DNA of 64,000 bases from Methylomonas sp. EFPC3. GTDB taxonomy: Bacteria; Pseudomonadota; Gammaproteobacteria; Methylococcales; Methylomonadaceae. The DNA lies in assembly GCF_029643245.1 (NCBI RefSeq), contig NZ_CP116398.1:3528372-3592371 (forward strand), given 5' to 3'. This document shows positions 3,545-39,120 of the stretch, in pieces. The notes below the pieces were generated by a model. That model was given only the letters and a program-made list of their open reading frames with translations. It was not told the origin of the DNA and searched no databases. The position numbers and the translations under genes were made by a program. The number at the start of each line of letters is the position of its first letter. The first letter of the stretch is position 1.

Positions 3545-5537
<1,993 letters not shown>

Positions 5538-5705: not shown

Positions 5706-7421
5706 ATGGCGACAGCACCTTCCAACATTCATTTTAGCGGTCTGGTTAAGTGCCTGATTCAGAAGGGGCTGCTGACAGAAGAGTCGGCAGCGACCTGTTT
5801 ACAGGAGGCGCAAAAGCGCAAACAGGCGTTCATTAGCTATTTGGTCGAACACAAATACGCGGATAGCAAAACCATCGCCACGCTGGCCTCGGCCGAATTC
5901 GGCGTGCCGTTTTTCGATCTGGACGCGATCGATCCCGCGTTTCTGCCGATCAAAATGGTCAGCGAAAAATTGATTCGCCAGCACCACGCCTTGCCCCTCT
6001 TTAAACGCGGTAACCGTTTGTTCGTCGCGACGGCCGACCCGACCAATTTCCAGGCCCTGGACGAGATCAAGTTCCACACCCGGCACAATACCGAAAATAT
6101 TCTGGTCGAAGAAGACAAACTGATCAGAATGATAGACACGGCGCTGGAAGCCGCGGATACGTCGATGAAGGATCTGCTCGACGACGATCTGGACAACATC
6201 GATATTTCCGCCGGCGACGAGGCCAAGCCGGCCGAAGACGCTATGGGTTCGGATATCGACGACGCGCCTATCGTCCGCTTCGTGAATAAGATTTTGCTGG
6301 ATTCGATCAAGCGCGGCGTATCGGATATTCACATGGAACCGTTCGAGAAGCGGTTCCGCATCCGCTTCCGCGCCGACGGCATACTGTCGGAAGTGGCGAG
6401 TCCGCCGGTCGGTATCGCTAATCGGATCATTTCCCGGCTGAAAGTCATGTCCAAGATGGACATCGCCGAACGGCGGGTGCCGCAGGACGGCCGGATCAAG
6501 ATGCAGATCTCGAAAAACCGCGCGATCGACTTCAGGGTCAACACCTGTCCGACCTTGTTCGGCGAAAAAGTGGTGTTACGGATTCTGGATCCGACCAGCG
6601 CCCAGATCGGCATCGAAAAACTCGGGTTCGAACCGGAACAGCAGAAAAATTTCCTGGATGCGATTCATAAACCCTACGGCATGGTGTTGGTCACCGGGCC
6701 GACCGGTAGCGGTAAGACGGTGTCGCTGTATACCGGTTTGAATATTCTGAACAGCGTCGAAACCAATATTTCCACGGCCGAAGACCCGGTAGAGATCACC
6801 GTAGAAGGCATCAACCAGGTCAACGTCAACCCTAAAGCCGGCTTGACTTTTGCCGAAGCGCTCAAAGCATTCTTGCGGCAGGACCCGGACATCATCATGG
6901 TCGGCGAGATCCGCGACTATGAAACCGCCAGTATCGCCGTCAAAGCAGCCCAAACCGGCCACTTGGTGTTGTCGACGCTGCACACCAACGACGCGCCGCA
7001 GACCATCAACCGGCTGGTACAGATGGGGATCGAGCCGTTCAATATCGTCTCGGCAGTTTTGCTGATTATGGCGCAACGTCTGGCACGGCGTTTGTGCGAG
7101 CATTGCAAGAAGGAAATGGATTACCCGGAAAGTGCGCTGATCTCGGCCGGCTTCAAAAAGGAAGAACTTGGCACTTTCAAAATATACGGTCCGGTGGGCT
7201 GCGAGCATTGCAATAACGGCTACAAAGGGCGGGTCGGTATTTACCAGGTGATGCCGATCACCGAAAAAATGCGGGCCTTGATCCTGCGCGGCGGCAATGC
7301 GATGGAGATGGCCGAATTGTCCCGCAGCGAAGGCATCAACGATTTGCGCACCTCCGGCTTGTTGAAAATCCGCCAGGGCATCACCTCACTGGAAGAAATT
7401 GACCGCGTCACCACGGAATAA
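5706..7421 (+). CDS. pilB: Type IV pilus assembly ATPase PilB
   Basis: 571 aa. N-terminal GSPII-like domain, Walker A GPTGSGKT, and tetracysteine CEHCKK...CEHCNNGY. Confidence 0.9.
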   Translation: MATAPSNIHFSGLVKCLIQKGLLTEESAATCLQEAQKRKQAFISYLVEHKYADSKTIATLASAEFGVPFFDLDAIDPAFLPIKMVSEKLIRQHHALPLFKRGNRLFVATADPTNFQALDEIKFHTRHNTENILVEEDKLIRMIDTALEAADTSMKDLLDDDLDNIDISAGDEAKPAEDAMGSDIDDAPIVRFVNKILLDSIKRGVSDIHMEPFEKRFRIRFRADGILSEVASPPVGIANRIISRLKVMSKMDIAERRVPQDGRIKMQISKNRAIDFRVNTCPTLFGEKVVLRILDPTSAQIGIEKLGFEPEQQKNFLDAIHKPYGMVLVTGPTGSGKTVSLYTGLNILNSVETNISTAEDPVEITVEGINQVNVNPKAGLTFAEALKAFLRQDPDIIMVGEIRDYETASIAVKAAQTGHLVLSTLHTNDAPQTINRLVQMGIEPFNIVSAVLLIMAQRLARRLCEHCKKEMDYPESALISAGFKKEELGTFKIYGPVGCEHCNNGYKGRVGIYQVMPITEKMRALILRGGNAMEMAELSRSEGINDLRTSGLLKIRQGITSLEEIDRVTTE

Positions 7422-7423
7422 TC

Positions 7424-8641
7424 ATGGCAAAACAAGAAGAGCAGATCGAATTCAATTGGGACGGTTTCGACAAACAAAACCGGAAAACCAAAGGCACTAT
7501 CAGTGCCAAAAGCGAAGTGATCGCTCGCGCCGAGCTGCGGCGGATGGGCATCCGGGTGATCGGTATCAAACCCAAGGCGAAACCCTTGTTCAGTCCGCGG
7601 GTGCAAAAAATCACGCCGGGCGATGTTGCCGTTTTTGCCCGCCAATTGGCGACCATGCTGGCGGCCGGCGTACCGCTGGTGCAGTCGTTCGATATCATCG
7701 GCAAGGGCCACGACAACGCCAGCATGTCGGAAATGCTGTTGTCGATCAAAGCCGACGTCGAGGGTGGCGATACCCTGGCGCAAGCATTGGGCCGCAAGCC
7801 GCTCTATTTCGACGCCTTGTTTTGCAATCTGGTCGAAGCCGGCGAACATGCCGGGGTATTGGAAACCTTGTTGGATAAGATTGCCACTTACAAGGAAAAA
7901 ACCGAGTCGATCAAGAAAAAAGTCAAAAAGGCTCTGACCTACCCGGTGGCAGTATTGGTGGTGGCGTTTATCGTTACCGCGATTTTGTTGGTGTTCGTGG
8001 TGCCGGTGTTCGAGGACTTGTTTAAAGGCTTCGGCGCCGATTTGCCGGCGTTCACCAAATTCGTCATCGATTTGTCGGCCTGGGTACAGGAATGGTGGTG
8101 GGCCGTGGTCGGCGTGCTATTTGTCGCCGGCTACACCTTTACCTACTTTAAAAAACGCTCGAAGGCCTTCAACCATTTTCTGGATCGGACCCTGTTGAAA
8201 ATACCGGTGGTCGGTATGATTTTGCAAAAATCGGCCATCGCCCGCTTCGCCAGAACCCTCTCGACCATGTCGGCCGCCGGCGTGCCGTTGGTCGAAGCCT
8301 TGGTTTCGGTGGCCGGCGCGTGCGGTAACATCTTGTTTTACGAGGCGGTGATGAAGGTGCGCGACGACGTCGCTACCGGCCAGCAATTGAAGTTCGCCTT
8401 GGAAACCACCGGCATATTTCCGAATATGGTGGTACAGATGGTGGCGATCGGCGAAGAATCCGGTTCGATCGACGCCATGCTGGACAAGGTCGCCGACTTT
8501 TACGAGGAAGAGGTCGATAACTTGGTCGACAACCTGAGCAGTTTGATGGAACCTATCATCATGGTGATCTTGGGGATTTTGGTCGGCGGTTTGATCGTGG
8601 CGATGTATTTGCCGATCTTCAAATTGGGCGCCGCTATCTAA
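7424..8641 (+). CDS. pilC: Type IV pilus inner-membrane platform protein PilC
   Basis: 405 aa GspF/PilC-family polytopic protein. Start lies 3 nt after the pilB stop. Confidence 0.9.
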   Translation: MAKQEEQIEFNWDGFDKQNRKTKGTISAKSEVIARAELRRMGIRVIGIKPKAKPLFSPRVQKITPGDVAVFARQLATMLAAGVPLVQSFDIIGKGHDNASMSEMLLSIKADVEGGDTLAQALGRKPLYFDALFCNLVEAGEHAGVLETLLDKIATYKEKTESIKKKVKKALTYPVAVLVVAFIVTAILLVFVVPVFEDLFKGFGADLPAFTKFVIDLSAWVQEWWWAVVGVLFVAGYTFTYFKKRSKAFNHFLDRTLLKIPVVGMILQKSAIARFARTLSTMSAAGVPLVEALVSVAGACGNILFYEAVMKVRDDVATGQQLKFALETTGIFPNMVVQMVAIGEESGSIDAMLDKVADFYEEEVDNLVDNLSSLMEPIIMVILGILVGGLIVAMYLPIFKLGAAI

Positions 8642-8700
8642 CCTGTTGCCGGTTCCGGCCTATTACAGGCAGCGGACCGGCCAGTCTTTACTGCTTACCT

Positions 8701-9567
8701 ATGTTGTTCAATGTCTTAGCTCAATCTCCCGGTTTTCTGGCCGCAAGCGCTTTAGTACTCGGCTTGCTGGTCGGCAGTTTTCTGAATGTGGTGATTTACC
8801 GGCTGCCGCTGATGATGCAGGCTGCGTGGCGGCGCGAGTGCCGCGAATACCTGGAATTGCCGGCCGAAGCCCCGGGCGAGCGTTTCGATCTGTTATTGCC
8901 GGCTTCGCACTGTCCGGCTTGCAAAGCCGAAATCAAAGCCTATCAAAACATCCCGGTCCTGAGCTATGTGCTGCTCGGCGGCAAATGCGCCAACTGCGGC
9001 AACAAAATCGGTTGGCGTTATCCTTCGATAGAGGCCTTTACCGGCCTGTGTTCGGCGCTGGTCGCTTGGCAACTGGGTTACGGCTGGGCGCTGGCGTTTG
9101 CGTTGCCGTTGACTTGGTGTCTGATTACACTGAGTTTTATCGATATCGATCAGCAATTGCTGCCGGACTCGATCACGCTGCCTTTGGTCTGGCTGGGTTT
9201 GCTGCTCAGCGTGTTCGGCATTTTTGCCGACAGCCGCGACAGTATCGTCGGCGCGGTAGCCGGTTATTTAAGCTTGTGGAGCGTCTACCACGGCTTTAAA
9301 TTGCTGACCGGCAAGGACGGCATGGGTTACGGCGATTTCAAATTACTGGCCGTATTCGGCGCCTGGCTGGGCTGGCAATATTTGCCGCTGATAATCTTGT
9401 TGGCTTCCCTGGTCGGTGCGGTGATTGGCGTCGCGATGATCGTGTTCTGCCGGCGCGATGCGGCCAAGCCGATTCCGTTCGGGCCTTATCTGGCTATGGC
9501 CGGCTGGCTGGCGCTATTGTGGGGTGAGCAAATGAATGCTTGGTATCTGCGGCTTGCAGGTCTGTGA
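8701..9567 (+). CDS. pilD: Prepilin peptidase / N-methyltransferase PilD
   Basis: 288 aa. Tetracysteine CPACK...CANCG and the A24 peptidase membrane core. Confidence 0.9.
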   Translation: MLFNVLAQSPGFLAASALVLGLLVGSFLNVVIYRLPLMMQAAWRRECREYLELPAEAPGERFDLLLPASHCPACKAEIKAYQNIPVLSYVLLGGKCANCGNKIGWRYPSIEAFTGLCSALVAWQLGYGWALAFALPLTWCLITLSFIDIDQQLLPDSITLPLVWLGLLLSVFGIFADSRDSIVGAVAGYLSLWSVYHGFKLLTGKDGMGYGDFKLLAVFGAWLGWQYLPLIILLASLVGAVIGVAMIVFCRRDAAKPIPFGPYLAMAGWLALLWGEQMNAWYLRLAGL

Positions 9568-11266: not shown

Positions 11267-12205
11267 TCAAGCCAAAAAGCCGCTGATGCCGGCTATACCC
11301 TGGGCACCGGCGGCTTGCGCCCGCACCAAATCCTGCCGGCTCAATCCGCCCAAGGCGAACACCGGCAAGTTGGCGTGCTCCAGCAGTTCGCTAAAGCGTT
11401 GCCAGCCTAAAGGCGGTGTGTCGGGGTGCGAAGCGGTCGGCATGACCGGCGCCAACACCGCAAAATCCACCCCAATCGCCAGCGCATGCTGCAGTTCCGT
11501 TGAATTGTGGCAAGACGCGGCGACCCAGCGCATTCCGGGCGGACGTCGATCCAGTCTTATTAACGCCCGGCTGCTCAAATGGATGCCTTGCGCCTGACTA
11601 ATATCCAAATCCAGATCGGCGTTGACCAGCACCTCGACAGCGTGGTGCCGGCATTGCTGCAATACCCGTTCGAGCACGGTTTGTTTGTCGTTCGCGCTTA
11701 GCGTTTTGGTCCGGAATTGCACTAATTTGACGCCGTTGTCGATGATGCGTCGGCAATTCGTCATGATCGATTCCGCATCTGCGCCTTCCAGGATGGCGTA
11801 ATACGCCGGCAGCCGGGCGGCTGCGATGATAGGCAGGTTGGCGGCCGGAAAGGTGAAGTCGGAAAGCTGGCCGGCGCTAACCCATTGCATGGCCTGGCCT
11901 TCGCAGGGCCGGGCTTCGCCGCTGAACGAGTTGACGTTCCAGACGTCCAGCAACACCCGGCGGTCGCCGTAATCGTGGCGGATTTTGATCAAAGGCTCGG
12001 CTGCGGCGACCCGAATCCCGACCTCTTCCTCCAGCTCCCGCGCTAGGGCCTGCAACACAGGCTCGCCGGGTTCCAGCTTGCCGCCGGGAAACTCCCACAA
12101 GCCGCCCTGGTGCGCGTGTTGTGCGCGTCGGGCGATCAGTATCCGACCGGCCGTGTCGCGAACGACGCCGACCGCGACGTGAACCACGTTATTTGGCTGG
12201 AGCAT
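11267..12205 (-). CDS. Nudix hydrolase (MutT-like) fused to a ThiE/TenI-like thiamine-phosphate synthase domain
   Basis: 312 aa. N-terminal Nudix box GGKLEPGEPVLQALARELEEEVGI followed by a TMP-synthase-like barrel. This fusion is common in Pseudomonas-like genomes. Confidence 0.75.
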   Translation of the reverse strand: MLQPNNVVHVAVGVVRDTAGRILIARRAQHAHQGGLWEFPGGKLEPGEPVLQALARELEEEVGIRVAAAEPLIKIRHDYGDRRVLLDVWNVNSFSGEARPCEGQAMQWVSAGQLSDFTFPAANLPIIAAARLPAYYAILEGADAESIMTNCRRIIDNGVKLVQFRTKTLSANDKQTVLERVLQQCRHHAVEVLVNADLDLDISQAQGIHLSSRALIRLDRRPPGMRWVAASCHNSTELQHALAIGVDFAVLAPVMPTASHPDTPPLGWQRFSELLEHANLPVFALGGLSRQDLVRAQAAGAQGIAGISGFLA

Positions 12206-12213
12206 GGGCGGAA

Positions 12214-13428
12214 TTAAGTGCGGTATTCGGCGTTGATTTTGACGTAATCGTAGGAAAAATCGCAGGTCAACACCTGTTCGCTGGCCGTGCCGCGGCCCAA
12301 ACGCACCGTGACGTCGATCTCCTGCTGGCTCATGACCCGCTGGCCGTCCTGTTCGGTGTAAGACGGCGCGCGGCCGCCGTTTTCGACGATGCAGACCGTA
12401 CCCAGGTAAATCTCGATCTTCTCCAGTTCCATATTTTCGACCCCGGCCCGGCCCACGGCGGCCAGGATCCGGCCCCAGTTCGGGTCGCTGGCGAAGAACG
12501 CGGTTTTGACCAGCGGCGAATGGGCAATGGTTTTTGCCACTTGCAGCGCTTCGCCGCTGTCGCGGGCTTGCTCGACGATGATGCGCATCAGCTTGGTGGC
12601 GCCTTCACCGTCGCGAATGATCAATTCCGCCAGCCGTTTGCAGACCGAGGTCAAGGCTGCGCTGAACGCCGCCAGATGCTCGCTGCCCGGCAGTATCTCC
12701 GGCGCGCCGCTGCAGCCGCTGGCCAAGACCACGCAGGCATCGTTGGTCGAAGTATCGCCGTCGACGGTGATCCGGTTAAACGATTGCTCGACCGCCGCAT
12801 TCAGGCACTCTTGCAGCAGACCCTGCTCGATTTTGGCGTCGGTGGCGATAAAGCCCAGCATCGTCGCCATATTGGGCTGGATCATGCCGGCGCCTTTGGA
12901 TATGCCGGTAATGGCGACCGGATGGCCGCCGATGTCGAGCTTCAACGAGGCGCCTTTCGGAAAGGTGTCGGTGGTCATGATTGCCCTCGCCGCCCGGTCC
13001 CAGTGCGATTCCGCCAGATTGGCGACCGCGGCCGGCAGTGCCGCCGCCAGTTTTTCCACCGGCAGCGGTTCGCCGATCACGCCGGTCGAAAACGGCAGCA
13101 CTTGCTGCGCCAACGCATCGACTTCTCCAGCCAAACCGGCGCAGCATGCAAAGGCGTCCTGCAAGCCTTGCTTGCCGGTGCCGGCATTGGCGTTGCCGGA
13201 GTTGACCAGCAGCCAGCGCGGGTTCATCGCCAAATGCGCCTTGGCGACCTGTACCGGCGCCGCGCAAAAGGCGTTTTGGGTGAATACCGCCGCGCAACTG
13301 CCGCCTTCGGCCATTGCGATGACCAAGATGTCGTCGCGCACGGTTTGTTTGATGCCGGCGTTACTGGAGCCGAGTGTGATGCCTTGGACGGCATACATTT
13401 CAGGAAATGAGGTGTCTCCGACTGCCAT
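12214..13428 (-). CDS. argJ: Bifunctional glutamate N-acetyltransferase / amino-acid acetyltransferase ArgJ
   Basis: 404 aa. TTDTFPK...ATMLGFIATD with the autocleavage site (ATML). Confidence 0.9.
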   Translation of the reverse strand: MAVGDTSFPEMYAVQGITLGSSNAGIKQTVRDDILVIAMAEGGSCAAVFTQNAFCAAPVQVAKAHLAMNPRWLLVNSGNANAGTGKQGLQDAFACCAGLAGEVDALAQQVLPFSTGVIGEPLPVEKLAAALPAAVANLAESHWDRAARAIMTTDTFPKGASLKLDIGGHPVAITGISKGAGMIQPNMATMLGFIATDAKIEQGLLQECLNAAVEQSFNRITVDGDTSTNDACVVLASGCSGAPEILPGSEHLAAFSAALTSVCKRLAELIIRDGEGATKLMRIIVEQARDSGEALQVAKTIAHSPLVKTAFFASDPNWGRILAAVGRAGVENMELEKIEIYLGTVCIVENGGRAPSYTEQDGQRVMSQQEIDVTVRLGRGTASEQVLTCDFSYDYVKINAEYRT

Positions 13429-13465
13429 TGTTTACCTTGTTAGACTGATTAACTAATTTTGTTGT

Positions 13466-13780
13466 GTCGCTATCGCGACGAATATTTTAATGTCGGTTCG
13501 CGGACCGACAACCGCGATACTTTTCTTTGCATCGCCAAAGAAAAGTATCCAAAAGAAAGGCGACCCGGACGCCGCTTAGCTCACTCGGCACATCCATGTG
13601 CCTCGCCCTACGGGTGCAATGCATGCAAATCGGCTATCCTGCCTATTTGTCCTGCGCTCCTCGCTTTCGACGGGGATCGACAGAAGGTGCTCCTGCCCCT
13701 CTGTCGATGTGCGGCATCCCTGCCGCACCCCTGCGGGCTATTCCCGCCGAAAGCTCCGGTGCTCGGCGCGGCATACGGGA
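13466..13780. repeat. Left arm of a ~315 bp inverted repeat, hairpin-rich
   Basis: Read directly from sequence. 13520..13780 is about 95% identical to the reverse complement of 14853..15113. Contains hairpins cttttctttg-N6-caaagaaaag, gtgcggca-tccc-tgccgcac and a nested atcgacaga(ggggc-agga-gcccc)ttctgtcgat. The outer 55 bp share palindromes with compensatory changes. Confidence 0.85.
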
Positions 13781-13913
13781 CCAAAACCATCCCGGAGTTT
13801 GAAAATTATATTGGTTGTCTATATACACCGTAGCCTCAATGCAGTGAAACGGAATCGAGGGTTAGAGTGCTTCGATTATCCACGATTCCACTACGCTTCA
13901 TGTCGGCTACTTG

Positions 13914-14759
13914 CTATAGGGATTCTGTTTCCTTGAGAGATTTGCCTTGTGCGTTTTTCCATGCCGTGAGTCCATTAGCTGTTCCCCCGTGAATAACCGC
14001 AGCAGCAGCGCTTGGGCTCGTGAACTCCGTATCTTTTGTGAAAAGCAACCTATCGCCATCACGGACAAGGAAGCCATCTTCTTTTAACTTCTGTCGTAAC
14101 GATATGAGCCAAGGGTATTTTTGGGCAGAATCGCGCTCCTGCAATACCGCATGGGAACCAGAAACCACAATAATTCCGTTTGGGGTTAAGTAGCCAGAAG
14201 CCTTTAGCCCCTTTAGCTCACAGAAGAGCATTTCATATGAACCGGAGTTGGTTTTTATTGCGGCAGTGGGGACGAGAGCTTCTACGCCAAGCGCAGGGAG
14301 AAGTTGCTGCATTTTCTCCAAGAACACCTCCATATCTTCTCTGTCGGACTCTGGGAGCTTTGCACCGCTAGATTGTGCGTTCTTGAGTATGGCGCGTCCA
14401 GATTGCTTTGCTTCGTCTATAAGACGGCCTTCCAAAAATCGAATATGCGCTTTGGTTAAATTCTCGTCTTTGCTTGTAAAGAAGACGATTTGATTCCAAA
14501 AGTCCTTTTCGAGATGGCTTTTGAGGCGATCTTTAATTGACTCAGCCTCTCCGATATAAAGAGCTGGCTTTCCTGTTTCTGTATCAATGCCCGTTAGGAA
14601 GTACACGCCTGCATTCGTTGCCTCTTCCCGAGCGAGAATGCTATCGAATTCTGTTCGAGGGCCTGCCACTGCTTTGCCCGTCCAATTTGAGAGTTCTGCA
14701 GTTCGCAACCGTTTTGGGTCACCATGGGCAAGAAATATTTTAATGGTTGCGCTAGCCAA
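13914..14759 (-). CDS. GIY-YIG nuclease family protein with C-terminal DUF4357-like domain
   Basis: 281 aa. GIY-YIG core GVYFLTG...LYIGEAESIKDRL. The C-terminal half resembles the DUF4357 domain that accompanies GIY-YIG modules. Gene GC is about 48% versus about 60% in the flanks. Apparent TTG start. Confidence 0.7.
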   Translation of the reverse strand: MASATIKIFLAHGDPKRLRTAELSNWTGKAVAGPRTEFDSILAREEATNAGVYFLTGIDTETGKPALYIGEAESIKDRLKSHLEKDFWNQIVFFTSKDENLTKAHIRFLEGRLIDEAKQSGRAILKNAQSSGAKLPESDREDMEVFLEKMQQLLPALGVEALVPTAAIKTNSGSYEMLFCELKGLKASGYLTPNGIIVVSGSHAVLQERDSAQKYPWLISLRQKLKEDGFLVRDGDRLLFTKDTEFTSPSAAAAVIHGGTANGLTAWKNAQGKSLKETESL

Positions 14760-14852
14760 GTCCTGAATCCGTATAACAAAAAGATAAATGGTTTCCGTAT
14801 ATCGTACGTATCCTTGAATAAAACCGTTTCTTTACTATCGAGACGGTTTTCC

Positions 14853-15168
14853 TCCCGTATGCCGCGCCGAGCACCGGAGCTTTCGGCGGGAATAGCCCGT
14901 AGGGGTGCGGCAGGGATGCCGCACATCGACAGAGGGGCAGGAGCCCCTTCTGTCGATCCCCGTCGAAAGCGAGGAGCGCAGGACAAATCGGCAGGATAGC
15001 CGATTTGCATGCATTGCACCCGTAGGGCGAGGCACATGGATGTGCCGAGTGAGCTAAGCGGCGTTCGGGTGGCGTTTCTTTTGGTGACTTTTCTTTGGCC
15101 AAACAAAGAAAAGTTACTCGGCTGTCGGGCCGAGACCCGACGTTAAATCAGGCCGTCGCGATAGCGAC
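14853..15168. repeat. Right arm of the ~315 bp inverted repeat
   Basis: Reverse complement matches 13466..13780. The mirrored ORFs on both arms encode near-identical peptides, which is an artefact of the repeat. Confidence 0.85.
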
Positions 15169-19877: not shown

Positions 19878-20035
19878 GGCGTCCGCCGCATTGTAAAAGA
19901 CGCAAGGATAGACGAGTAAGCGGTGGCGATGGCAAAGATTTTCCGGACTAATTCGTGCCGGCCAATCGTCTCGGCCTTCACATGTCCGGCTGTTGACCTA
20001 AACTTTGAACATTTTTTAACGCGAGATTGGCCGGT

Positions 20036-21190
20036 ATGGAATTTAGAGACTATTTGAAAATCCTGGTGCAGCACGACGGTTCCGATTTGTATTTGACGGC
20101 CGGCGCGCCGCCGGCCGCCAAATTCCAAGGCACCTTGAAGCCGTTGGAAAACGTCAAGCTTACCCCGGAGCGGATCAAGCAAATCGCCGACAGCGTGATG
20201 GACCACGAGCAACGCGCCAGTTTCGAGCACGTGCCGGAGATGAATCTGGCCATCACTGAAGAGGGCATCGGCCGGTTCCGGGTCAATATTTTCAAGCAGC
20301 GCAATTGTTATGCCTTGGTAATCCGCAACATCAAGGTGGATATTCCGAATGCCGACGTTTTGGGTCTGCCGCAGATTTTGAAAGACAAAATCATGGAGAA
20401 GCGCGGCCTGATTTTGTTCGTCGGCGGCACCGGCTCCGGTAAATCGACTTCGCTGGCGGCCTTGATCGATTACCGCAACAGCAATTCGTCGGGCCACATC
20501 ATCACCATCGAAGATCCGATCGAATTCGTGCATCCGCATAAACGCTCGTTGGTCAATCAGCGCGAAGTCGGGGTCGATACCCTAAGCTACGAAGACGCCT
20601 TGAAGAATACGCTGCGCCAAGCGCCCGACGTGATCCTGATCGGCGAAATCCGCAGCCAGGAAACCATGGAGCATGCGTTGGCCTTTGCCGAAACCGGCCA
20701 TTTATGCCTGTCGACCTTGCATGCCAATAACGCCAACCAGGCGCTGGACCGGATCATCAACTTCTTTCCGGAAGAGCGCCGGCCGCAATTGTTGATGGAT
20801 TTGTCTTTGAATTTGCAGGCCTTTGTCTCGCAACGCCTGGTGCCGACCATAGAAGGCAAGCGGGTGGCGGCGATCGAAATTCTGTTAGGTACCAAACTGG
20901 TCAGTGATTTGATCCACAAGGGCGACATTCATGCCATCAAGGAAGCGATGGAAAAGTCGGAAAATATCGGTATGCAGACCTTCGACAGCCATCTGTTGAA
21001 GCTGTACAAAAGCGGCGTGATTTCGTTGGAAGAAGCGCTGCGCAATTCGGATTCGCCGAACAATCTGAAACTGAAAATCAATTTGAGCGAGGGTTTGGGT
21101 TCGGCTACCAAACAAACCGGAGCGCTGGGCAGTCTGGCTTTGGAAGAGATCAGCAAGAAGGAAGGCGACGACGGCGACGGAGGGCATTGA
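20036..21190 (+). CDS. PilT/PilU-family twitching-motility ATPase (third paralog in window)
   Basis: N-terminus MEFRDYLKILVQHDGSDLYLTAGAPP resembles Pseudomonas PilU. Walker A GGTGSGKST. The ORF track starts 3 codons earlier at a TTG. Confidence 0.8.
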   Translation: MEFRDYLKILVQHDGSDLYLTAGAPPAAKFQGTLKPLENVKLTPERIKQIADSVMDHEQRASFEHVPEMNLAITEEGIGRFRVNIFKQRNCYALVIRNIKVDIPNADVLGLPQILKDKIMEKRGLILFVGGTGSGKSTSLAALIDYRNSNSSGHIITIEDPIEFVHPHKRSLVNQREVGVDTLSYEDALKNTLRQAPDVILIGEIRSQETMEHALAFAETGHLCLSTLHANNANQALDRIINFFPEERRPQLLMDLSLNLQAFVSQRLVPTIEGKRVAAIEILLGTKLVSDLIHKGDIHAIKEAMEKSENIGMQTFDSHLLKLYKSGVISLEEALRNSDSPNNLKLKINLSEGLGSATKQTGALGSLALEEISKKEGDDGDGGH

Positions 21191-21210
21191 TGTCGGCCGT
21201 AGCGGCCGGG

Positions 21211-21534
21211 TTATGGCAAATCTTCCGGATTCAGGATTTTATAAATTTCGTAGGCCGGTTGTTGGTAGGGATGGCTGTCTAGCAGGGTTTGCACGGCGGT
21301 TTTGATAACGTGGTCGGCGCAAACCATTTCCACCTTGTACTCGGCGACGGTTTCCAGCCTATCGATCGCGCCTAGATACGGCTCGCTCCCGGCTAAGGGG
21401 CGAAACTGGCCCTGGCCCAGCGTTTGCCAGCAGCAGCGATCGTAATCGCCGAAACGGCCGGCGCCCTGTTCGAATAGCGCTTGCTTGATGGCTTCAACGT
21501 GGCTGGCCGGCGCGTAAAAACAAAGTTTATACAT
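21211..21534 (-). CDS. Small conserved protein, possibly CutA/Nif3-insert-like PII fold
   Basis: 107 aa. HPYQQPAYEIY is reminiscent of the CutA HPYExPE motif. Family assignment is uncertain. Confidence 0.3.
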   Translation of the reverse strand: MYKLCFYAPASHVEAIKQALFEQGAGRFGDYDRCCWQTLGQGQFRPLAGSEPYLGAIDRLETVAEYKVEMVCADHVIKTAVQTLLDSHPYQQPAYEIYKILNPEDLP

Positions 21535-21579
21535 GGCGCGCCGACCTCTCCCGGTGAAACCCGCTATCGGCGAAGCGCA

Positions 21580-21729
21580 TCAGCCGGCCGCCAGCAAAAA
21601 TACGCCCCACAACACGACGACCAGTGTGATTTCCTCGATCATGTTGAGTGCCGCCTGACGGTCGGCGCGAATGTGCATGGCTAATTGGTTGGCTTTTTGG
21701 TCTCGCATATGGACTGATTGGCGCGGCAT
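21580..21729 (-). CDS. 49-aa hydrophobic peptide immediately downstream of lexA
   Basis: Found by eye; too short for the ORF track. Sequence MPRQSVHMRDQKANQLAMHIRADRQAALNMIEEITLVVVLWGVFLLAAG. Strong SD GAGGAAACC 7 nt upstream, 12 nt after the lexA stop, with a C-terminal transmembrane helix. Confidence 0.45.
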   Translation of the reverse strand: MPRQSVHMRDQKANQLAMHIRADRQAALNMIEEITLVVVLWGVFLLAAG

Positions 21730-21741
21730 AAGGTTTCCTCG

Positions 21742-22371
21742 TTAGTGGTGGTGGGTGTAACTCCGCATTTGTCCGACCAATACGCCTTGGATTTCCACTT
21801 GCTCGGGTTTGTAGCGCAGGGCCTGCATCGTGGAATTGGCGGGTATCAGCAAGGTTTCGTGCGGATATTGCTCGATGAATTTCAATGTGGCTTCGGTCTT
21901 GTCGACCAAGGCCACCACAATCTCGCCGTTACGGGCGTGGCTGCGTTGTTCGATGACGACCCAGTCGCCGTCGAAAATACCTTCCTCCAGCATCGAATCG
22001 CCTTTGACCTGCAACACATAACAGGATTTTCCGGTTTTCAACTGTTCCGGTACTGCCATGTAGGCGATGTTTTCGATGGCTTCGATCGGTTTGCCGGCGG
22101 CGATGTATCCGACGAAGGGCAATAGCTCGGAAGGCTCGCCCGGCTTGGTCATGGCCTTGGCGTATTCGGTCAAACGGATGCCGCGCTGTTTGCGCTCCGG
22201 CGCTTCGACCAAATTGGCGTCGATCAACGCCTTGATTTGGCTGTGCAGCGAGCCGCGCGATTTCAAACCCATTGCCGCGCAGAGTTCCTCCAGCGTTGGC
22301 GGATGGTTGAACTGTTCCTGGTTTTGCAGCAGGAAGTCGAAAATTTCTTGTTGTTTACGGGTAAGGTTCAT
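21742..22371 (-). CDS. lexA: LexA repressor
   Basis: MNLTRKQQEIFDFL wHTH N-terminus. S24 peptidase domain with Ala-Gly cleavage site and Ser/Lys dyad. The ORF track extends 13 codons upstream. Confidence 0.9.
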   Translation of the reverse strand: MNLTRKQQEIFDFLLQNQEQFNHPPTLEELCAAMGLKSRGSLHSQIKALIDANLVEAPERKQRGIRLTEYAKAMTKPGEPSELLPFVGYIAAGKPIEAIENIAYMAVPEQLKTGKSCYVLQVKGDSMLEEGIFDGDWVVIEQRSHARNGEIVVALVDKTEATLKFIEQYPHETLLIPANSTMQALRYKPEQVEIQGVLVGQMRSYTHHH

Positions 22372-22952
22372 TTTTGTTCTGTATTTGTTTTGTAAAAATG
22401 ATATATGCAAAACAAATGCAAAACAAACTATTTTTTCAGTTCACGCGAAATGTTAACTTTGTAGCAAATCCAACCTAAAATGCCGCGACCGGTGTCGGCC
22501 AAGTTGTCGCAAAGACTACAAAAAGGTGTCGTTATACCCGCGACCACGCCGGAATTGCACCAGCTTGGATCGCGCTTGCCCGTTTTTAGCACTATCGGAG
22601 TTTTTCGGTTCGGAATCGGAGCGATCGCCGCCCGGAAAAACGTATAGCGCTTCATGCTCGGCGGGTCGCAGGTATGGTTCGCAGCCGAATTCGCGTGTTG
22701 CGATCGGGTTTCGGTCACACTGCGCGGAAATGTTTTTAACGACAAAGCACTGCCCGCAAGCGGTGCTCAGGCCAGGTAAAGCCGGTGTTTGGTTCTGCCG
22801 GGAAAGCCGACGGCGTGAAATTGTTACGAGAATGTGCACCAATTAGGCAATTGGACTGAAATTTGCATGAATAGGATAAACAATCGACGCCTAAGCTAGT
22901 CGGCTGTTTTTCCGCCGCAGTCGCGGCTTGCATCCTCATCGGGGGGCCTATC

Positions 22953-24860
22953 ATGAAAAAATTTCTCATCCCGCTGTTCGTCCTGGCCGGTATCGCAATT
23001 GCACTGTTTGCCGCTTTCGATCCGACCTCTTCCGCCTATCACAAGCAAAACGACGAGTCTTACTCCGACTTCATTCTCGATGTCCGTAGTAAATCGGTCG
23101 CCGAGGTTGTGATCGACGGCCGTTCTATCCGCGGCCGACGCCATAACGGTAGCGAATTCAGCACCTACAACCCCGGCGATATGCGTATGATCGACGACTT
23201 GCTGGAATATGGCGTCAAAATCAAGGTTGAAAGGCCGGAAAACGAAATGAGTTTTCTGCAAATTTTCTACTCTTGGATTCCGACCCTGTTGTTGATTGCC
23301 GTATTGATTTATTTCATGCGTAAGCAGCAAATGGGAGCCGGCGGCCAAAACGCTTTTGGCAAAAGCCGCGCCAAATTAATGACGGAAGACCAGGTCAAGG
23401 TGCGTTTCGATGATGTCGCCGGCGCCGAGGAAGCCAAACAAGACGTGGTGGAATTGGTGGATTTCTTGAAAGACCCCGGTAAATACGAAGCGCTGGGCGG
23501 CAAGATTCCGCGCGGCGTATTGATGGTCGGCCCTCCGGGTACCGGTAAGACCTTGATTGCCAGAGCCATTGCCGGCGAGGCGGGTGTGCCGTTCTTCTCG
23601 ATCTCCGGTTCCGATTTCGTCGAAATGTTCGTTGGCGTCGGCGCTTCGCGTGTCCGCGACTTGTTCGAAAACGCCAAGAAGCGCGCGCCGTGCATCATTT
23701 TTATCGACGAAATCGACGCGGTCGGCCGCCAACGTAGTTCCGGGAATATGGGCGGAGCAGAAGAACGCGAACAAACCTTGAACCAATTGTTGGTGGAAAT
23801 GGACGGTTTCAACGGCAATGAAGGCATTATCGTCATCGCCGCCACCAACCGCGTCGACGTATTGGACAAAGCCTTACTGCGGCCGGGGCGCTTCGATCGC
23901 CAAGTGCAGGTCGGCTTGCCGGATATCAAAGGTCGTGAGCAAATCCTGAAAGTACATGCCGCCCGGGTGCCGCTGGCTGCCGATGTCGATATCAATGCGT
24001 TAGCTCGCGGTACCCCCGGATTCTCCGGGGCCGAACTGGCCAATCTGATCAACGAAGGCGCCTTGTTTGCCGCCCGCAACAACCAGCGGGAAGTGACCAT
24101 GAACGACTTGGACAAGGCGCGCGACAAAACCATCATGGGCGCGGAAAAACGCACGATGATCATGGGCCGCGAAGAACTGTTGATGACAGCCTACCATGAA
24201 GCCGGTCACGCCATCGTCGGTCGGCTGGTGCCGGAGCATGACCCGGTCTATAAAGTCAGCATCATGCCGCGCGGCGGCGCCTTGGGCATCACCATGTTCC
24301 TGCCGGAACGCGATCAATACAGCGCCAGCAAGGAAAAGCTGGAAGGCCAGATTTCCAGTCTGTTTGGCGGTCGGATCGCCGAGGCGCTGATTTACGGCAA
24401 AGACAAAGTCACTACCGGCGCCTCCAACGATATCCAGCGCGCCACCCAACTGGCGCGGAACATGGTGACCAAATGGGGTTTTTCCGACCGCTTGGGGCCG
24501 ATGGATTGCGGTGACAGCGATAGCGGCTATTTCGGGCCGCAGGCCAAGCCGATGTCGGAACAGATGGCTTTATTCGTCGACAAAGAAATTCGGCGGATGC
24601 TGTCCAGCAATTACCACCGCGCCGAAACCATCCTGAAGACGCATATCGATATTTTGCACAACATGGCTCAGGCCTTGCTGGATTGGGAAACTCTGGATAA
24701 GGGGCAGATCGATCAATTGATGAGGGGTAGAAAACTCTCACCGCCCAAGGTGGCGCCGGATAAGGCAAAAACCAACAAAACCAATATCGGATGGGGCGAG
24801 CCGGTCGGACCGTTACCGAACGGCGTCCCGGCGCTAGGCAGGACCCCGTTCCGGCATTGA
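22953..24860 (+). CDS. ftsH: ATP-dependent zinc metalloprotease FtsH
   Basis: 635 aa. Two TM helices, AAA module [11 protein letters not shown], and zinc motif HEAGH. Confidence 0.95.
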
Positions 24861-32685: not shown

Positions 32686-33723
32686 ATGGATATCGCCGAA
32701 CTGTTGACGTTCTCCGTCAAGAATAAAGCTTCCGACTTGCACCTTTCCGCCGGCTTGCCGCCGATGATCCGGGTGGACGGCGACATTCGCCGGATCAACA
32801 TCCCGGCCCTGAACCACAAGGAAGTGCACGCGCTGATTTACGACATCATGAACGACAAGCAGCGCCGCGATTACGAGGAGTTTCTGGAAACCGACTTTTC
32901 GTTTGCCTTGCCGGGGGTAGCCCGATTCCGGGTCAACGCCTTCAATCAGGATCGCGGTGCCGGCGCGGTATTCCGGACCATTCCGTCGAAAGTCTTGACC
33001 CTGGAAGAGCTGGATGCGCCCAAGTTTTTTCAGGAGCTGTGTACCAAGCCGCGCGGTTTGATTTTGGTGACCGGACCGACCGGTTCCGGTAAATCCACCA
33101 CGTTGGCGGCGATGATCAACCACATCAACAACAACGATTACGCCCACATCCTCACGGTCGAAGATCCGATCGAGTTTGTTCACGAAAGCCAGAAATCGCT
33201 GATTAACCAGCGCGAGGTGCATCGCGATACGCTGGGTTTCAACGAAGCCTTGCGCTCGGCGTTGCGGGAAGACCCGGACATCATCCTGGTCGGCGAGATG
33301 CGCGATTTGGAAACCATTCGTCTGGCGCTGACTGCGGCCGAAACCGGCCACTTGGTGTTCGGCACCTTGCACACCACTTCGGCCGCCAAGACCATAGACC
33401 GGATCATCGACGTGTTCCCGGCGGCCGAGAAAGACATGATCCGGGCCATGTTGTCCGAGTCGTTACAGGCGGTTATTTCGCAAACACTGCTGAAGAAGGT
33501 CGGCGGCGGCCGGATCGCTGCGCATGAGATCATGGTCGGTACCCCGGCGATCCGCAACCTGATCCGTGAAGCCAAGGTGGCGCAGATGTATTCGGCGATT
33601 CAGACCGGGCGCAAGGACGGCATGCAGACGCTGGACCAAAACCTGAAAGAGCTGGTCGACAAGGGCCTGATTACCGCCAAGGCGGCGATGACTCGGGCCG
33701 TCAATAAAGACATGTTCCGCTGA
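32686..33723 (+). CDS. pilT: Twitching motility ATPase PilT
   Basis: 345 aa. GPTGSGKSTT Walker A and PilT family motifs. Confidence 0.9.
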   Translation: MDIAELLTFSVKNKASDLHLSAGLPPMIRVDGDIRRINIPALNHKEVHALIYDIMNDKQRRDYEEFLETDFSFALPGVARFRVNAFNQDRGAGAVFRTIPSKVLTLEELDAPKFFQELCTKPRGLILVTGPTGSGKSTTLAAMINHINNNDYAHILTVEDPIEFVHESQKSLINQREVHRDTLGFNEALRSALREDPDIILVGEMRDLETIRLALTAAETGHLVFGTLHTTSAAKTIDRIIDVFPAAEKDMIRAMLSESLQAVISQTLLKKVGGGRIAAHEIMVGTPAIRNLIREAKVAQMYSAIQTGRKDGMQTLDQNLKELVDKGLITAKAAMTRAVNKDMFR

Positions 33724-33739
33724 TGAACGAGGAGGCCTG

Positions 33740-34873
33740 ATGGACTTTACCGCGCTATTGGCATTGATGGTGGAAAAACGGGCGTCGGATTTATTCATTA
33801 CCGCCGGGCGGCCGCCGTCGATGAAAGTCAACGGCAAAGTCGTCGAAGTCTCGAAGACGTCGCTGACCAGCGAACAAACCCTGAAGCTGGTGCTCGGCAT
33901 CATGTCGCAACGCCAGCGCGACGAATTCGAAAACACCAAGGAATGCCAATTCGCGTTAAGCGCGCACAGTCTGGGCCGGTTCCGGGTCAGCGCCTTCACC
34001 CAGCGCGATTCGGCCGGCATGGTGTTGCGCCGGATCGAAACCACGATTCCGACTGCGGAAGAGTTGCATCTGCCGCCGGTGTTGAAGGAATTGATCATGC
34101 ACAAGCGCGGCTTGGTCATGTTCGTCGGTGCGACCGGCACCGGTAAATCGACCTCGCTCGCGGCCTTGATCCGCCACCGCAACGAAAACAGCAGCGGCCA
34201 CATCATTTCCATCGAAGATCCGATCGAGTTCATTCACCCCCACCAGGGCTGTATCATTACCCAGCGCGAAGTGGGTCTGGATACCGAATCGTTCGAAGTC
34301 GCTTTGAAAAACACACTGCGTCAAGCGCCGGACGTGATTCTAATCGGCGAGGTCAGGACCCGCGAGACCATGCAACACGCGATAACCTTTGCCGAGACCG
34401 GCCACCTGTGCGTCTGTACCTTGCACGCCAACAACGCCAACCAGGCCATAGACCGCATCCTGCACTTTTTCCCGGAAGACATGCACAGCCAGTTGTTCAT
34501 GGACTTGTCTTTGAATTTGCGCGGCATCGTCGCTCAGCAATTGATTCAGCGTGCTGATGGCAAAGGCCGTTATCCCGCCATCGAAATTCTGTTGAATACG
34601 CCGCTAGTCGCCGATTTGATTCGTAAGGGCGAGGTGCATAAATTAAAAGAATTGATGAAGAGCTCGCGCGAGCATGGCATGCAAACTTTCGACCAGGCGC
34701 TTTACGATCTGTACACAGCCGGTAAAATTAGTTACGAAGATGCTCTGCACGCTGCCGACTCCCGCAACGAAGTCCGCCTGATGATCAAATTGGGCGCCGA
34801 GAACGTCAATTTCGAAACCGCCGGCATGACGTTGGCCGAAAGCGACGAAGACGGAGGCAGCCTTTATAAATAA
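33740..34873 (+). CDS. pilU: Twitching motility ATPase PilU
   Basis: 377 aa PilT paralog directly downstream of pilT. Confidence 0.85.
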   Translation: MDFTALLALMVEKRASDLFITAGRPPSMKVNGKVVEVSKTSLTSEQTLKLVLGIMSQRQRDEFENTKECQFALSAHSLGRFRVSAFTQRDSAGMVLRRIETTIPTAEELHLPPVLKELIMHKRGLVMFVGATGTGKSTSLAALIRHRNENSSGHIISIEDPIEFIHPHQGCIITQREVGLDTESFEVALKNTLRQAPDVILIGEVRTRETMQHAITFAETGHLCVCTLHANNANQAIDRILHFFPEDMHSQLFMDLSLNLRGIVAQQLIQRADGKGRYPAIEILLNTPLVADLIRKGEVHKLKELMKSSREHGMQTFDQALYDLYTAGKISYEDALHAADSRNEVRLMIKLGAENVNFETAGMTLAESDEDGGSLYK

Positions 34874-36668: not shown

Positions 36669-37778
36669 TTAAAAAGTCTTTGTCGCTTCCGAATAATCGA
36701 ATAAATCCAACTGCCGATAAGGCTTAGCGTGAGGGGCTTCGTTATCCAAGCCGGATAGGGTTACGCCAAGCAAACGGACTTTACTGGAACCCACCGGAGT
36801 GTTTTTGATTAACTCGGTCAGCAGCAATGCACATGCCGGGTTATCGGCGACCGGCTCGTTTAGGGTGCGGCTGCGGGTGATTTGCACGAAGTTCTGGAAT
36901 TTGATTTTTACCGTCAGGGTGTAGGCGGTCAGGCCTTTCTCGGCCAAGCGCTGCAACGCGGTGCGCATCAGAGCCTGCAACTGCCGCTGAATCGAGGCGA
37001 GATCGGCCAAATCCTGTTCGAAGGTGGTTTCCACGCCGACCGACTTGCGAACCCGGTCGGCGCGAACCGGGCGCAAATCGATGCCGCGGGCAATGTTGAA
37101 ATAATGCCGGGCGGCCTTGCCGAAATGTTGGTGCAAGATTGCCAATGGTACGGCTTTCAAGTCCTTGCCGGTATTGACCCCTAAATCGCGCATTTTCTGT
37201 TCGGTGGCCGGACCGATGCCGTGAAACCGGCCGATGTCCAGTTTCTCGGCGAATTCGGGGCCTTGTTCCGGAGGAATCAGGTACAGTCCGTCCGGCTTCC
37301 CCATATCCGAGGCGAGTTTGGCCAGAAATTTATTGTAAGAAATGCCGGCCGATGCGATCAGGCGGGTTTGTTTCAGGATGTCTTGTTTGATTTGCTTGGC
37401 CAATAACGTGGCCGAGCCTTGGTAAAGCTCAGAATCGCTGACGTCCAGATAGGCTTCGTCCAGAGATAGCGGCTCGACACAGTCGCAATAGCGGGCGAAA
37501 ACGTCGCGGACGAGGGCCGAGGCCTCCCGGTAGGCGTCGAAACGCGGCTTGACAAAGATCGCCTGCGGACAGAGCCGGTAGGCGTGGGCGGAAGGCATGG
37601 CCGAACGTACGCCGAACTGGCGGGCTTCGTAGCTGCAGGTGGCCACCACGCCACGCGAATCGGGTCTGCCGCCGACGATGATAGGCTTGTTCCGGTATTG
37701 CGGATGGTCGCGTTGTTCGACCGCTGAGTAAAACGCATCCATATCGATGTGGATGATTTTGCGCGGACGGTCGTCCAT
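36669..37778 (-). CDS. dinB: DNA polymerase IV (Y-family)
   Basis: 369 aa. IIHIDMDAFYSAVE N-terminus. Confidence 0.9.
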   Translation of the reverse strand: MDDRPRKIIHIDMDAFYSAVEQRDHPQYRNKPIIVGGRPDSRGVVATCSYEARQFGVRSAMPSAHAYRLCPQAIFVKPRFDAYREASALVRDVFARYCDCVEPLSLDEAYLDVSDSELYQGSATLLAKQIKQDILKQTRLIASAGISYNKFLAKLASDMGKPDGLYLIPPEQGPEFAEKLDIGRFHGIGPATEQKMRDLGVNTGKDLKAVPLAILHQHFGKAARHYFNIARGIDLRPVRADRVRKSVGVETTFEQDLADLASIQRQLQALMRTALQRLAEKGLTAYTLTVKIKFQNFVQITRSRTLNEPVADNPACALLLTELIKNTPVGSSKVRLLGVTLSGLDNEAPHAKPYRQLDLFDYSEATKTF

Positions 37779-37784
37779 CGGCGT

Positions 37785-38087
37785 TTACGGTTTGTCGAGC
37801 TGCTCCAGCTTGGCGGTTTCGTTCCAATCGGAAAACGGAAACGGCAATTGCTCGGTATTGAAAGTTAAAAACAGCAGGATATGGTAATGGTAGGTCGACA
37901 GGCTGCGGCCGAAACTGAGGATGTTGGCGTTGGCCGCACCGGTAAACAGTACCGAACCTACCTGCAGCAAAATCACCAGCCACAACAGCAGTTTGACCAA
38001 ACTGTCTATCGCAGCGAAAACCAGCATGAAGATCACCCGTTTCCAGGTTTCGATTTTTTTCAAATTCTCGTTGATCTGTTCTTGCAT
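37785..38087 (-). CDS. Small membrane protein (DUF4389-like)
   Basis: 100 aa with two TM helices. Sits 6 nt upstream of dinB in the same orientation. Confidence 0.45.
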   Translation of the reverse strand: MQEQINENLKKIETWKRVIFMLVFAAIDSLVKLLLWLVILLQVGSVLFTGAANANILSFGRSLSTYHYHILLFLTFNTEQLPFPFSDWNETAKLEQLDKP

Positions 38088-38097
38088 GGTCGTGGTT

Positions 38098-39120
38098 TTA
38101 ACCTCTGTTCATCACGTCGCGCAAGTCCAGTGCGGCCGCATTGGCGCGGGCAATGTAGTTGGCCATGGCCAGCGAATAGTTGGCAAACACGCCGAAACCG
38201 TCGCCGTTCAGAACCACCGGACTTAAAGTCGGCGTCAACGCATTTTCCAGCGCCTGAATCATGTTATCCAGCGTGTTCATCGCCCGTTTGTCCAACAGAA
38301 TGTCGGAAAAGTCGTGTTTGATGGCTCTCAGGATGTGTAGCAAGGCCCAGCAGGAACCGCGCGCTTCGTAGAATACGTTGTCGATTTCCATCCAAGGCGT
38401 CTGGCCGATGGTCGGCATGTTGATGTCGACCGGATTCGATGGGTCGCCGTGCGCAGCGCCGGCAAATTTGTCGGTACTGGCGGCGAGACGGGTCGACAGA
38501 CCGCCCAGGCGCTTGATCACGACTTCGGTATATTGCCACAAGTTGTCAGCGCGGGAATGGAACTGGGCTGCTCTCGAGGTCGAAGTCGGATTTTGCAGCC
38601 GCGACATATAGGCATGTAATGCCTCGATACCTTTAATATATTCGGACTCGGTGGACGGCAAGGCCCAGGAATTGCGTTCGTAGTAGAAGTAAGGCTCCGC
38701 TTTGGCTAAATCCGGGTCTTCCGCCGATTGCGATTGGTCTCTGGCAAAGTGGTTGCGTAAGGCGGTGGTACCGTCGCGCAGCATGACCAGTGCGCCGTAT
38801 TCGAAACTTTGGATGTTGTCGCAAAACAGGCCGGGAGGCGCGACGTCGTTGGACAGGTAGCCGCCGGCTTTGAACAGAATGACGTCGGCGATGTGGGCCA
38901 GCGTATTGGCGTAAACGTAACCGATCGGCATCTGGTCGGTATGGGTCACATTCATGCGTTCGATCGCTTCATCCTGAACGTTAAATTGCTCGGGCTCACG
39001 GCTCCACCATTCGCCTAAAATCAACATGACCACAACGACGATGCCTATCAGCGTACCGAAACCCCAGAGTATGCCTTTAGACTTGGCGTCTTCTTCGAGT
39101 GCGAATGAATTGTCTGACAT
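38098..39120 (-). CDS. DUF2333-family protein (N-terminal TM anchor)
   Basis: 340 aa. One TM helix then a large soluble domain. Family assigned from memory of dinB-neighbour genes in pseudomonads. Confidence 0.5.
   Translation of the reverse strand: MSDNSFALEEDAKSKGILWGFGTLIGIVVVVMLILGEWWSREPEQFNVQDEAIERMNVTHTDQMPIGYVYANTLAHIADVILFKAGGYLSNDVAPPGLFCDNIQSFEYGALVMLRDGTTALRNHFARDQSQSAEDPDLAKAEPYFYYERNSWALPSTESEYIKGIEALHAYMSRLQNPTSTSRAAQFHSRADNLWQYTEVVIKRLGGLSTRLAASTDKFAGAAHGDPSNPVDINMPTIGQTPWMEIDNVFYEARGSCWALLHILRAIKHDFSDILLDKRAMNTLDNMIQALENALTPTLSPVVLNGDGFGVFANYSLAMANYIARANAAALDLRDVMNRG

Follow-up and report, generated by a model that had tools for sequence, protein, structure and literature searches.

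In this study we analysed a window of 64,000 nucleotides (64 kb) of the genome of Methylomonas sp. EFPC3 and focused on the SOS repressor gene lexA, its promoter and the gene of a protein of 49 amino acids located directly downstream of it. We found that the lexA promoter contains repeats of the type GTTC-N7-GTT(C/T) which, judged by sequence comparison, are probably the LexA operator of an autoregulated and damage-inducible operon. The small open reading frame (ORF) behind lexA is a real protein-coding gene tied to lexA, and its product is very probably made from the lexA transcript and hence SOS-controlled. As the best overall explanation we tentatively propose, with considerable doubt, an autoregulated SOS operon with a GTTC-repeat operator and a micro-protein that delays division. 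In the literature library that we searched, neither a LexA motif of Methylococcales nor a gammaproteobacterial LexA box of the direct-repeat type was reported, and we found no description of this micro-protein or of a small membrane protein sharing a transcript with lexA. What appears to be new is a lineage-specific candidate LexA operator, which matches the alphaproteobacterial repeat but appears to be used by a different LexA clade, and a family of lexA-linked small membrane proteins.

The lexA gene is located on the minus strand (21742-22371; start codon ATG at 22371, stop codon TAA at 21744-21742) and encodes 209 amino acids. A longer, TTG-started version of this ORF in the program-made ORF list has no support from homologues, which begin at MNLTRKQ. 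The product matches the Pfam families LexA_DNA_bind (PF01726, 1.6e-10) and Peptidase_S24 (PF00717, 2.7e-28) and reaches 155.6 bits on the NCBIfam LexA equivalog TIGR00498, which has a cutoff of 110.95. With an N-terminal winged-helix DNA-binding domain and a C-terminal S24 self-cleaving domain it has the architecture of LexA and belongs to this family. The Ala-Gly cleavage site and the Ser/Lys dyad are kept, as AAGKP, GDSM and TLKF of this LexA align with AAGEP, GMSM and TVKR of the Escherichia coli protein. Similarity amounts to about 90 bits towards both E. coli and Thermotoga LexA, and identity with E. coli LexA is 32%. The recognition helix reads SRGSLHSQ. In the ungapped alignment of the DNA-binding domains, S39-PNAAEEHL-K48 of E. 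coli corresponds to S-RGSLHSQI-K, and all E. coli residues between S39 and K48 (P40, N41, A42, A43, E44, E45, H46 and L47) are replaced. These include N41, E44 and E45, by which, as we understand the LexA-operator crystal structure (PDB 3JSO), the CTGT half-site is read.

The region before lexA contains four copies of an 11-nt unit, TTTGTTTTGCA, two direct and two inverted, which form a palindrome with arms of 27 nt at 22373-22399 and 22401-22427 and its centre at 22400. An earlier note on this DNA had described direct repeats and a palindrome in this promoter. Both are real, while two details had to be corrected: the arms TTGTTTTG and CAAAACAA lie 15 and not 14 nt apart, and the conserved core is not TTGTTTTGCA. 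The repeats exceed what is expected by chance. A position weight matrix (PWM) of the box, derived from relatives, gave 32.7 bits for the copy proximal to lexA and 24.8 bits for the distal one; no other site of the 64 kb exceeded 10.7 bits, and the maximum in shuffled sequences was 9.5 +/- 2.5. The view that they constitute a non-canonical operator rather than noise, as implied by that note, is supported. Moreover, its statement that no CTGT-N8-ACAG site precedes lexA could be extended, since neither this motif nor the relaxed form CTGW-N8-WCAG has a match anywhere in the window. This lexA promoter lacks the canonical SOS box of Beta- and Gammaproteobacteria.

The proximal candidate box (22373-22393, plus strand) is inverted with respect to lexA, has the core GTTC (22376-22379)-N7-GTTT (22387-22390) and spans roughly the region from +1 to the start codon. 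The distal candidate box (22407-22427, minus strand) is in lexA orientation, and its core has decayed to GTTT (22424-22421)-N7-GTTT (22413-22410). It overlaps the -35 element and the spacer of the putative sigma-70 promoter of the operon (22398-22426, minus strand), which consists of TTGTTT at 22426-22421, a spacer of 17 nt and TATCAT at 22403-22398. A simple promoter scanner missed this TTGTTT/TATCAT promoter and proposed TTAACA-18-AATAGT at 22456-22427 instead.

Comparison with relatives carries most of the evidence for the operator. A LexA-based scan with one genome per species yielded 80 Methylomonadaceae loci with LexA proteins of 68-95% identity, including Methylomonas, Methylobacter, Methyloglobulus, Methyloprofundus and Bathymodiolus symbionts. 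Alignment of the 80 promoters showed that the conserved core is TTGTTCT at 11-bp intervals, i.e. GTTC-N7-GTT(C/T). The consensus of the box is TTGTTCTnTATTTGTTCT, with information near its maximum at G, T, T and C. A box in lexA orientation, mostly a perfect GTTC-N7-GTTC, lies about 55-70 nt before the start codon in 77 of the 80 loci, and a box of opposite orientation is found directly before the start codon in 71. Perfect boxes are present in 61 loci, and with one mismatch allowed every one of the 80 promoters contains at least one box. Perfect boxes have a density of 6.45 per kb in the 140-nt windows of the lexA promoters, compared with 0.020 per kb in the other 460 kb of these loci, which corresponds to an enrichment of about 320-fold. 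A PWM scan of the 64-kb window and of the flanks of the 80 loci revealed nothing credible beyond the lexA promoters; nine perfect matches occurred elsewhere, mostly inside ORFs.

The arrangement of the boxes is regular as well. They are 33 bp apart in 38 loci and 44 bp apart in 13, a change by one 11-bp unit or about one helical turn. In two loci (L016 and L025) three to four tandem 11-nt TTGTTCT units instead of two were observed about 60-85 nt upstream of lexA, which suggests that the operator gains and loses length in complete units of 11 bp. Across the loci the first half-site recurrently coincides with a TTGTTC -35 element, TATAxT follows as -10 element 17 nt later, and the second box covers the transcript start; our assignment of a sigma-70 promoter is inferred from this recurring register.

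The box is also found beyond the Methylomonadaceae. In five lexA loci of independent lineages with a high content of guanine and cytosine (GC, 0.60-0.71; L202, L204, L206, L212 and L213) the only perfect box of the fetched locus is located no more than 500 nt upstream of lexA, and in two of them (L202 and L204) it lies directly upstream of a small ORF that precedes lexA. A further locus with a GC content of 0.37 and a LexA of 46% identity (L216) has two perfect inverted boxes around its -10 element; here a Y-family polymerase gene follows 13 nt after lexA (2445-4439) and the small protein gene is absent. No box was found at the lexA loci L214 and L215, and L210 has a box with one mismatch only. 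The box tracks this LexA clade over genomes with GC contents of 0.37-0.71, that is, it follows the LexA clade and not base composition.

Other genes of the SOS type share this control region in several relatives. In three lineages of Methylococcales lexA and umuDC are transcribed in opposite directions, away from a single common box region (L208, 1936-3282; L062, 1700-1920; L073). In a Methylobacter metagenome-assembled genome (L059, 3001-5570) lexA, the small gene, umuD and umuC follow one another on one strand, with 45 nt and no box between the small gene and umuD. This genome, STD1_208, contains a second contig with a lexA-small-gene pair (L064). Compared with the LexA studied here, the proteins of the two contigs show about 73% and 72% identity; the two pairs come either from a mixture of two strains in the bin or from a genuine duplication. 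In two high-GC loci (L207, 566-3001; L213, 1-2501) a DEAD/Hrq1-type helicase of about 800 amino acids is divergent from lexA, with a box in the common intergenic region, and is a candidate SOS helicase.

GTTC-N7-GTTC has been published as the LexA box of Alphaproteobacteria such as Rhodobacter, Caulobacter and Rhizobium, whereas Gammaproteobacteria have been described with CTGT-N8-ACAG and exceptions were tied to lexA duplications (PMC4951493). The box described here resembles the alphaproteobacterial one in its GTTC direct repeat, the 7-nt spacer, the extended form TTGTTCT-N4-TTGTTCT and the tandem sites in the lexA promoter. In contrast, it occurs in a gammaproteobacterial host with another LexA clade, its boxes are inverted around the -10 element, and the second half-site is often GTTT. 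We also scanned metagenomes for TTGTTCTNNNTTTGTTCT and obtained 120 stretches, mostly from high-GC Alphaproteobacteria and low-complexity repeats. The motif precedes uvrA (L157), splB-like genes (L124, L156 and L174), a helicase gene (L175) and umuDC (L161 and L166), mostly on high-GC contigs, and the proteins of L161 fall in clusters whose named members are Alphaproteobacteria. Since the same motif is found at uvrA, umuDC and splB-like promoters of alphaproteobacterial contigs, the extended consensus agrees with the alpha-type LexA box. Among the matches was a single lexA promoter of the methanotroph type (L086), and the scan, which had been aimed at further regulon members of methanotrophs, was of value solely as a positive control in which the alpha box was recovered.

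The repressor itself does not appear to be of the alpha type. An exhaustive LexA search placed it in a surrounding clade with 41-62% identity and the common recognition-helix sequence SRGS(L/M)H. The helix SKSGIHRLI is presumably the signature of alphaproteobacterial LexA. Representatives with this helix are only 34-39% identical to the LexA studied here, no closer than other LexA proteins, and because of this distance and its own helix SRGSLHSQ we do not assign it to the alpha lineage; by sequence it belongs to a divergent clade whose nearest members share SRGSLH. Horizontal transfer of an alphaproteobacterial lexA was considered and is unsupported, as the alpha-type representatives are no closer than others. 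The GTTC repeat shared by Alphaproteobacteria and this clade may be either ancestral or convergent. A motif held to be an alphaproteobacterial hallmark is thus also present in a separate SRGSLH clade over a GC range of 37-71%, which bears on the evolution of LexA motifs. Besides, the candidate operator covers the main family of freshwater and marine methane oxidisers (Methylomonas, Methylobacter, Methyloprofundus and mussel symbionts) and would make their SOS regulon predictable from the genome sequence.

The small gene (21580-21729, minus strand) starts exactly 12 nt past the lexA stop codon on the same strand, and the spacer contains the Shine-Dalgarno sequence GAGGA (21736-21740, minus strand), as read from the DNA. 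A 49-aa ORF at this distance with a strong Shine-Dalgarno sequence and a hydrophobic end had already been noticed in the earlier note, and all of these features were confirmed. A hypothetical protein of Methylomonas sp. EFPC3 matches its product with 100% identity. The gene follows lexA in 76 of the 80 Methylomonadaceae loci, in 75 of them as an ORF of 44-61 codons located 9-30 nt past the lexA stop codon behind an AGGAG-like element and in one (L080) about 170 nt downstream. The ratio of nonsynonymous to synonymous substitution rates (dN/dS) has a pairwise median of 0.11 in 279 pairs, with 0.05 for the motif codons and 0.15 for the rest, and on this basis a spurious ORF was rejected. Conservation in relatives, on which the earlier note had made the gene depend, is thus given.

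The homologues form 42 clusters with 59-100% identity. Among 69 distinct sequences H7, M8, D10, Q11 and N14 are invariant, followed by a variable linker and a hydrophobic C-terminus. A profile search in 5.8 billion proteins yielded 314 members, of which all named ones belong to Methylococcales and all are called hypothetical, and no family was found in Pfam, NCBIfam or PHROGs. These 314 clusters represent an unannotated micro-protein family with a sharply defined 10-residue motif.

The only conserved neighbour of the small gene is lexA. In two more distant groups a small ORF lies directly upstream of lexA: in L202/L203 (LexA 52% identical, GC 0.60) it is on the same strand, contains ...FMRDRVSNRV... 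and ends in a membrane helix, and in L204/L205 (LexA 49% identical, GC 0.65) it contains MHDRVVNRV... and likewise ends in a membrane helix. With a hidden Markov model of the family the ORFs of L202/L203 rank first of all ORFs in seven fetched loci and those of L204/L205 just below; the E-values of 0.14 and 3.8 are not significant alone. We regard the ORFs as homologous because of the nine-residue motif (7 of 9 residues identical to MRDQVTNRV of Methylobacter), the length of 48-50 amino acids from motif to end, the same architecture and the same neighbour. Adjacency to lexA is hence conserved and gene order is not, and adjacency that is kept despite a reversed order is a signature of selection for co-expression.

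AlphaFold2, run with 49 family members, predicted a single helix for residues 2-48 with a confidence score (pLDDT) of 90.8. The last 16 residues are hydrophobic, with a Kyte-Doolittle mean over 15 residues of up to 2.7. As the N-terminal 30 residues have a net charge of +3 and no more than 3 residues follow the hydrophobic stretch, the protein is predicted to be tail-anchored in the inner membrane (anchor I34-G49) with the invariant N-terminal motif (V)HMRDQ..N in the cytoplasm. The conserved part is the polar N-terminus, and the membrane helix varies freely. Three lineages (L073, L079 and L208) have a strongly amphipathic C-terminal helix with a hydrophobic moment (muH) of about 0.75 in place of the hydrophobic one, which suggests that membrane association, and not a pore, is what these variants retain. 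Since the motif is polar and invariant, the anchor is variable and an amphipathic tail can substitute for it, a specific membrane-proximal partner in the cytoplasm is favoured over a pore.

According to the mechanism that we propose, LexA of this clade would recognise the direct repeat GTTC-N7-GTT(C/T) and not the CTGT-N8-ACAG palindrome. Two opposed boxes at a distance of three or four helical turns would lie on either side of the -10 element in the lexA promoter, with the distal one over the -35 element and the spacer and the proximal one over the transcription start and the short leader, and due to these positions bound LexA would block RNA polymerase. The small protein would be translated from its own Shine-Dalgarno sequence behind lexA, and its level would rise and fall with lexA transcription. 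The basic N-terminal two thirds of its helix with the HM(R/Q)DQ..N motif would face the cytoplasm, and the last 16 or so residues would act as anchor. Upon DNA damage, self-cleavage of LexA would derepress the operon, and the accumulating tethered protein would bind a conserved membrane-proximal partner via its cytoplasmic motif, most likely a component of the divisome. Septation would be held back until repair is complete, and fresh LexA from the same transcript would then close the operon.

That the small protein is a checkpoint protein delaying division is possible, if somewhat doubtful, and is suggested by analogy. In other bacteria, the inhibitors that stop division during the SOS response are small proteins with one transmembrane segment; they are mutually non-homologous and typically encoded beside lexA (PMC6851548). 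YneA, SosA, ChiZ and DivS are small, lineage-restricted, LexA-controlled proteins with a single membrane helix encoded beside lexA (PMC6851548), and the same seems to apply here, with LexA control being putative. In contrast to these divergently encoded genes, the small gene is probably co-transcribed with lexA, and its product is predicted to have a tail anchor, with no more than 3 residues protruding beyond the membrane. YneA, SosA and ChiZ act via extracytoplasmic parts, whereas the conserved part of our protein would be cytoplasmic. SidA of Caulobacter is reportedly also a small, LexA-controlled division inhibitor with a single membrane helix, not encoded beside lexA. In Pseudomonas and relatives lexA and sulA form an operon, in which a damage-response effector is encoded right behind lexA on a common mRNA. 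SulA has about 160 amino acids, is soluble and binds FtsZ. The SulA-like character considered in the earlier note holds for the position downstream of lexA, where our protein may likewise be an effector, and not for homology, as no match to Pfam SulA (PF03846) was found at E <= 0.1. Should the small protein act as an SOS checkpoint of methanotrophs, it would represent a cytoplasm-facing, tail-anchored type that has not been described yet.

Several observations weigh against this explanation. Three of the four half-sites in this genome are GTTT instead of GTTC, which might make for weak repression. Of the SOS genes at whose promoters the earlier note suggested looking for the motif, recA, uvrA and the like lie outside the window. 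The one SOS-type gene inside it, dinB (36669-37778, minus strand), encodes a Y-family polymerase, has no GTTC-N7-GTTC box nearby and may be outside LexA control here. In four of the 80 loci (L065, L066, L068 and L076) the small gene is absent and a convergent gene takes its place. As already mentioned, three lineages lack the hydrophobic helix. The protein has no homology to SidA, YneA, SosA, ChiZ or SulA, and it has essentially no extracytoplasmic part, unlike YneA, SosA and ChiZ. Moreover, co-transcription with the repressor implies basal expression, which is awkward for a potent inhibitor.

Other explanations concern both the small protein and the promoter. The small protein might instead regulate the SOS switch itself: from its place in the membrane it would contact LexA or the RecA filament by its N-terminal motif and, as a co- or anti-repressor, adjust how LexA is cleaved, binds DNA or is localised. 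We consider this unlikely. The linkage to lexA in both gene orders, in LexA lineages that are only about 50% identical, fits a co-evolving partner, and the same operon would provide a fixed ratio to LexA. Furthermore, small LexA-binding proteins are known, namely gp7 of phage GIL01 (PMC4551915) and the Acinetobacter co-repressor DdrR (PMC11332147), which have about 50 amino acids and are functionally tied to a LexA-type repressor, as may apply here. However, those proteins are soluble and unrelated in sequence; neither similarity to gp7, DdrR, DinI or RecX nor a family match was detected, regulation of LexA or RecA leaves the need for a membrane anchor unexplained, and some members of the clade lack the protein (L206, L212, L213, L216 and the four Methylomonadaceae loci). 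Its more specific form, a membrane-tethered partner which binds LexA or RecA* via the HM(R/Q)DQ..N helix, sets the SOS threshold or reset at the membrane and co-evolved with the non-alphaproteobacterial LexA clade that reads GTTC repeats, seems rather unlikely to us. If true, it would be a new layer of SOS control that is not known in E. coli. The earlier note had thought of an SOS-induced toxin similar to TisB or DinQ. A membrane toxin of this kind would depolarise the inner membrane and promote dormancy or persistence. Small size, SOS linkage and a hydrophobic helix are indeed shared with these type I toxins, and yet we judge a toxin very unlikely. TisB and DinQ are expressed from a separate LexA-controlled promoter with a silenced, inhibitory leader and an antisense RNA, and their activity lies in the membrane helix, whereas the small gene has a strong Shine-Dalgarno sequence behind lexA and its 12-nt spacer leaves no room for an inhibitory leader; a search of positions 21000-23000 against Rfam revealed no small RNA family. 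The polar N-terminus is conserved and the membrane helix freely variable, down to the three lineages with an amphipathic tail, and basal co-expression of a toxin with lexA would be costly.

With regard to the promoter, the palindrome could form a hairpin in the RNA of a long leader, or serve another regulator as its site, rather than being the LexA operator. If transcribed, its 55 nt would fold at -16.3 kcal/mol (z = -3.5), and the upstream promoter proposed by the scanner would place it inside the transcript. In the Rfam search just mentioned no RNA family reached the gathering score, and only sub-threshold matches to microRNA hairpins appeared, which were caused by the palindrome. The GTTC half-sites are conserved in sequence and the variable positions show no compensatory change: apart from one position, the two boxes of one locus match no more than boxes of different loci. 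This missing covariation favours a protein site over RNA pairing. In addition, the distance between the arms changes in a step of exactly 11 bp, the box is single and without an inverted partner in some relatives (L202 and L062), and the motif equals the known LexA box (PMC4951493) and tracks lexA over the whole GC range. We therefore regard the hairpin and the foreign site as extremely improbable and retain the LexA operator as the probable function of the repeats.

The operon may have a third, genus-specific member. An ORF of 107 amino acids (21211-21534, minus strand) starts 45 nt after the small gene and has homologues in 15 of the 80 loci, all of the Methylomonas type, mostly 6-50 nt and in a few cases 20-328 nt after the peptide gene. 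It is absent at the remaining loci of the 80 and has no match in Pfam or NCBIfam. Upstream, ftsH is divergent from lexA only here and in the closest relative, and a functional link to this neighbour was rejected as the synteny is confined to that relative. The dinB gene is the last of a run on the minus strand which comprises a DUF2333 gene (38098-39120), an ORF of 100 amino acids (37785-38087) and dinB. The window also contains four genes for PilB/PilT-type ATPases (5706-9567, 20027-21190 and 32686-34873), one of which (20027-21190) converges on the lexA operon; a pilC-like gene (7424-8641) and a prepilin-peptidase gene (8701-9567) accompany them. Finally, the ORFs at 11877-15102, which include a DUF4357 protein (13914-14759), have a low third-position GC content of 0.43-0.56 compared with about 0.7 elsewhere, and this region looks like a horizontally acquired island.

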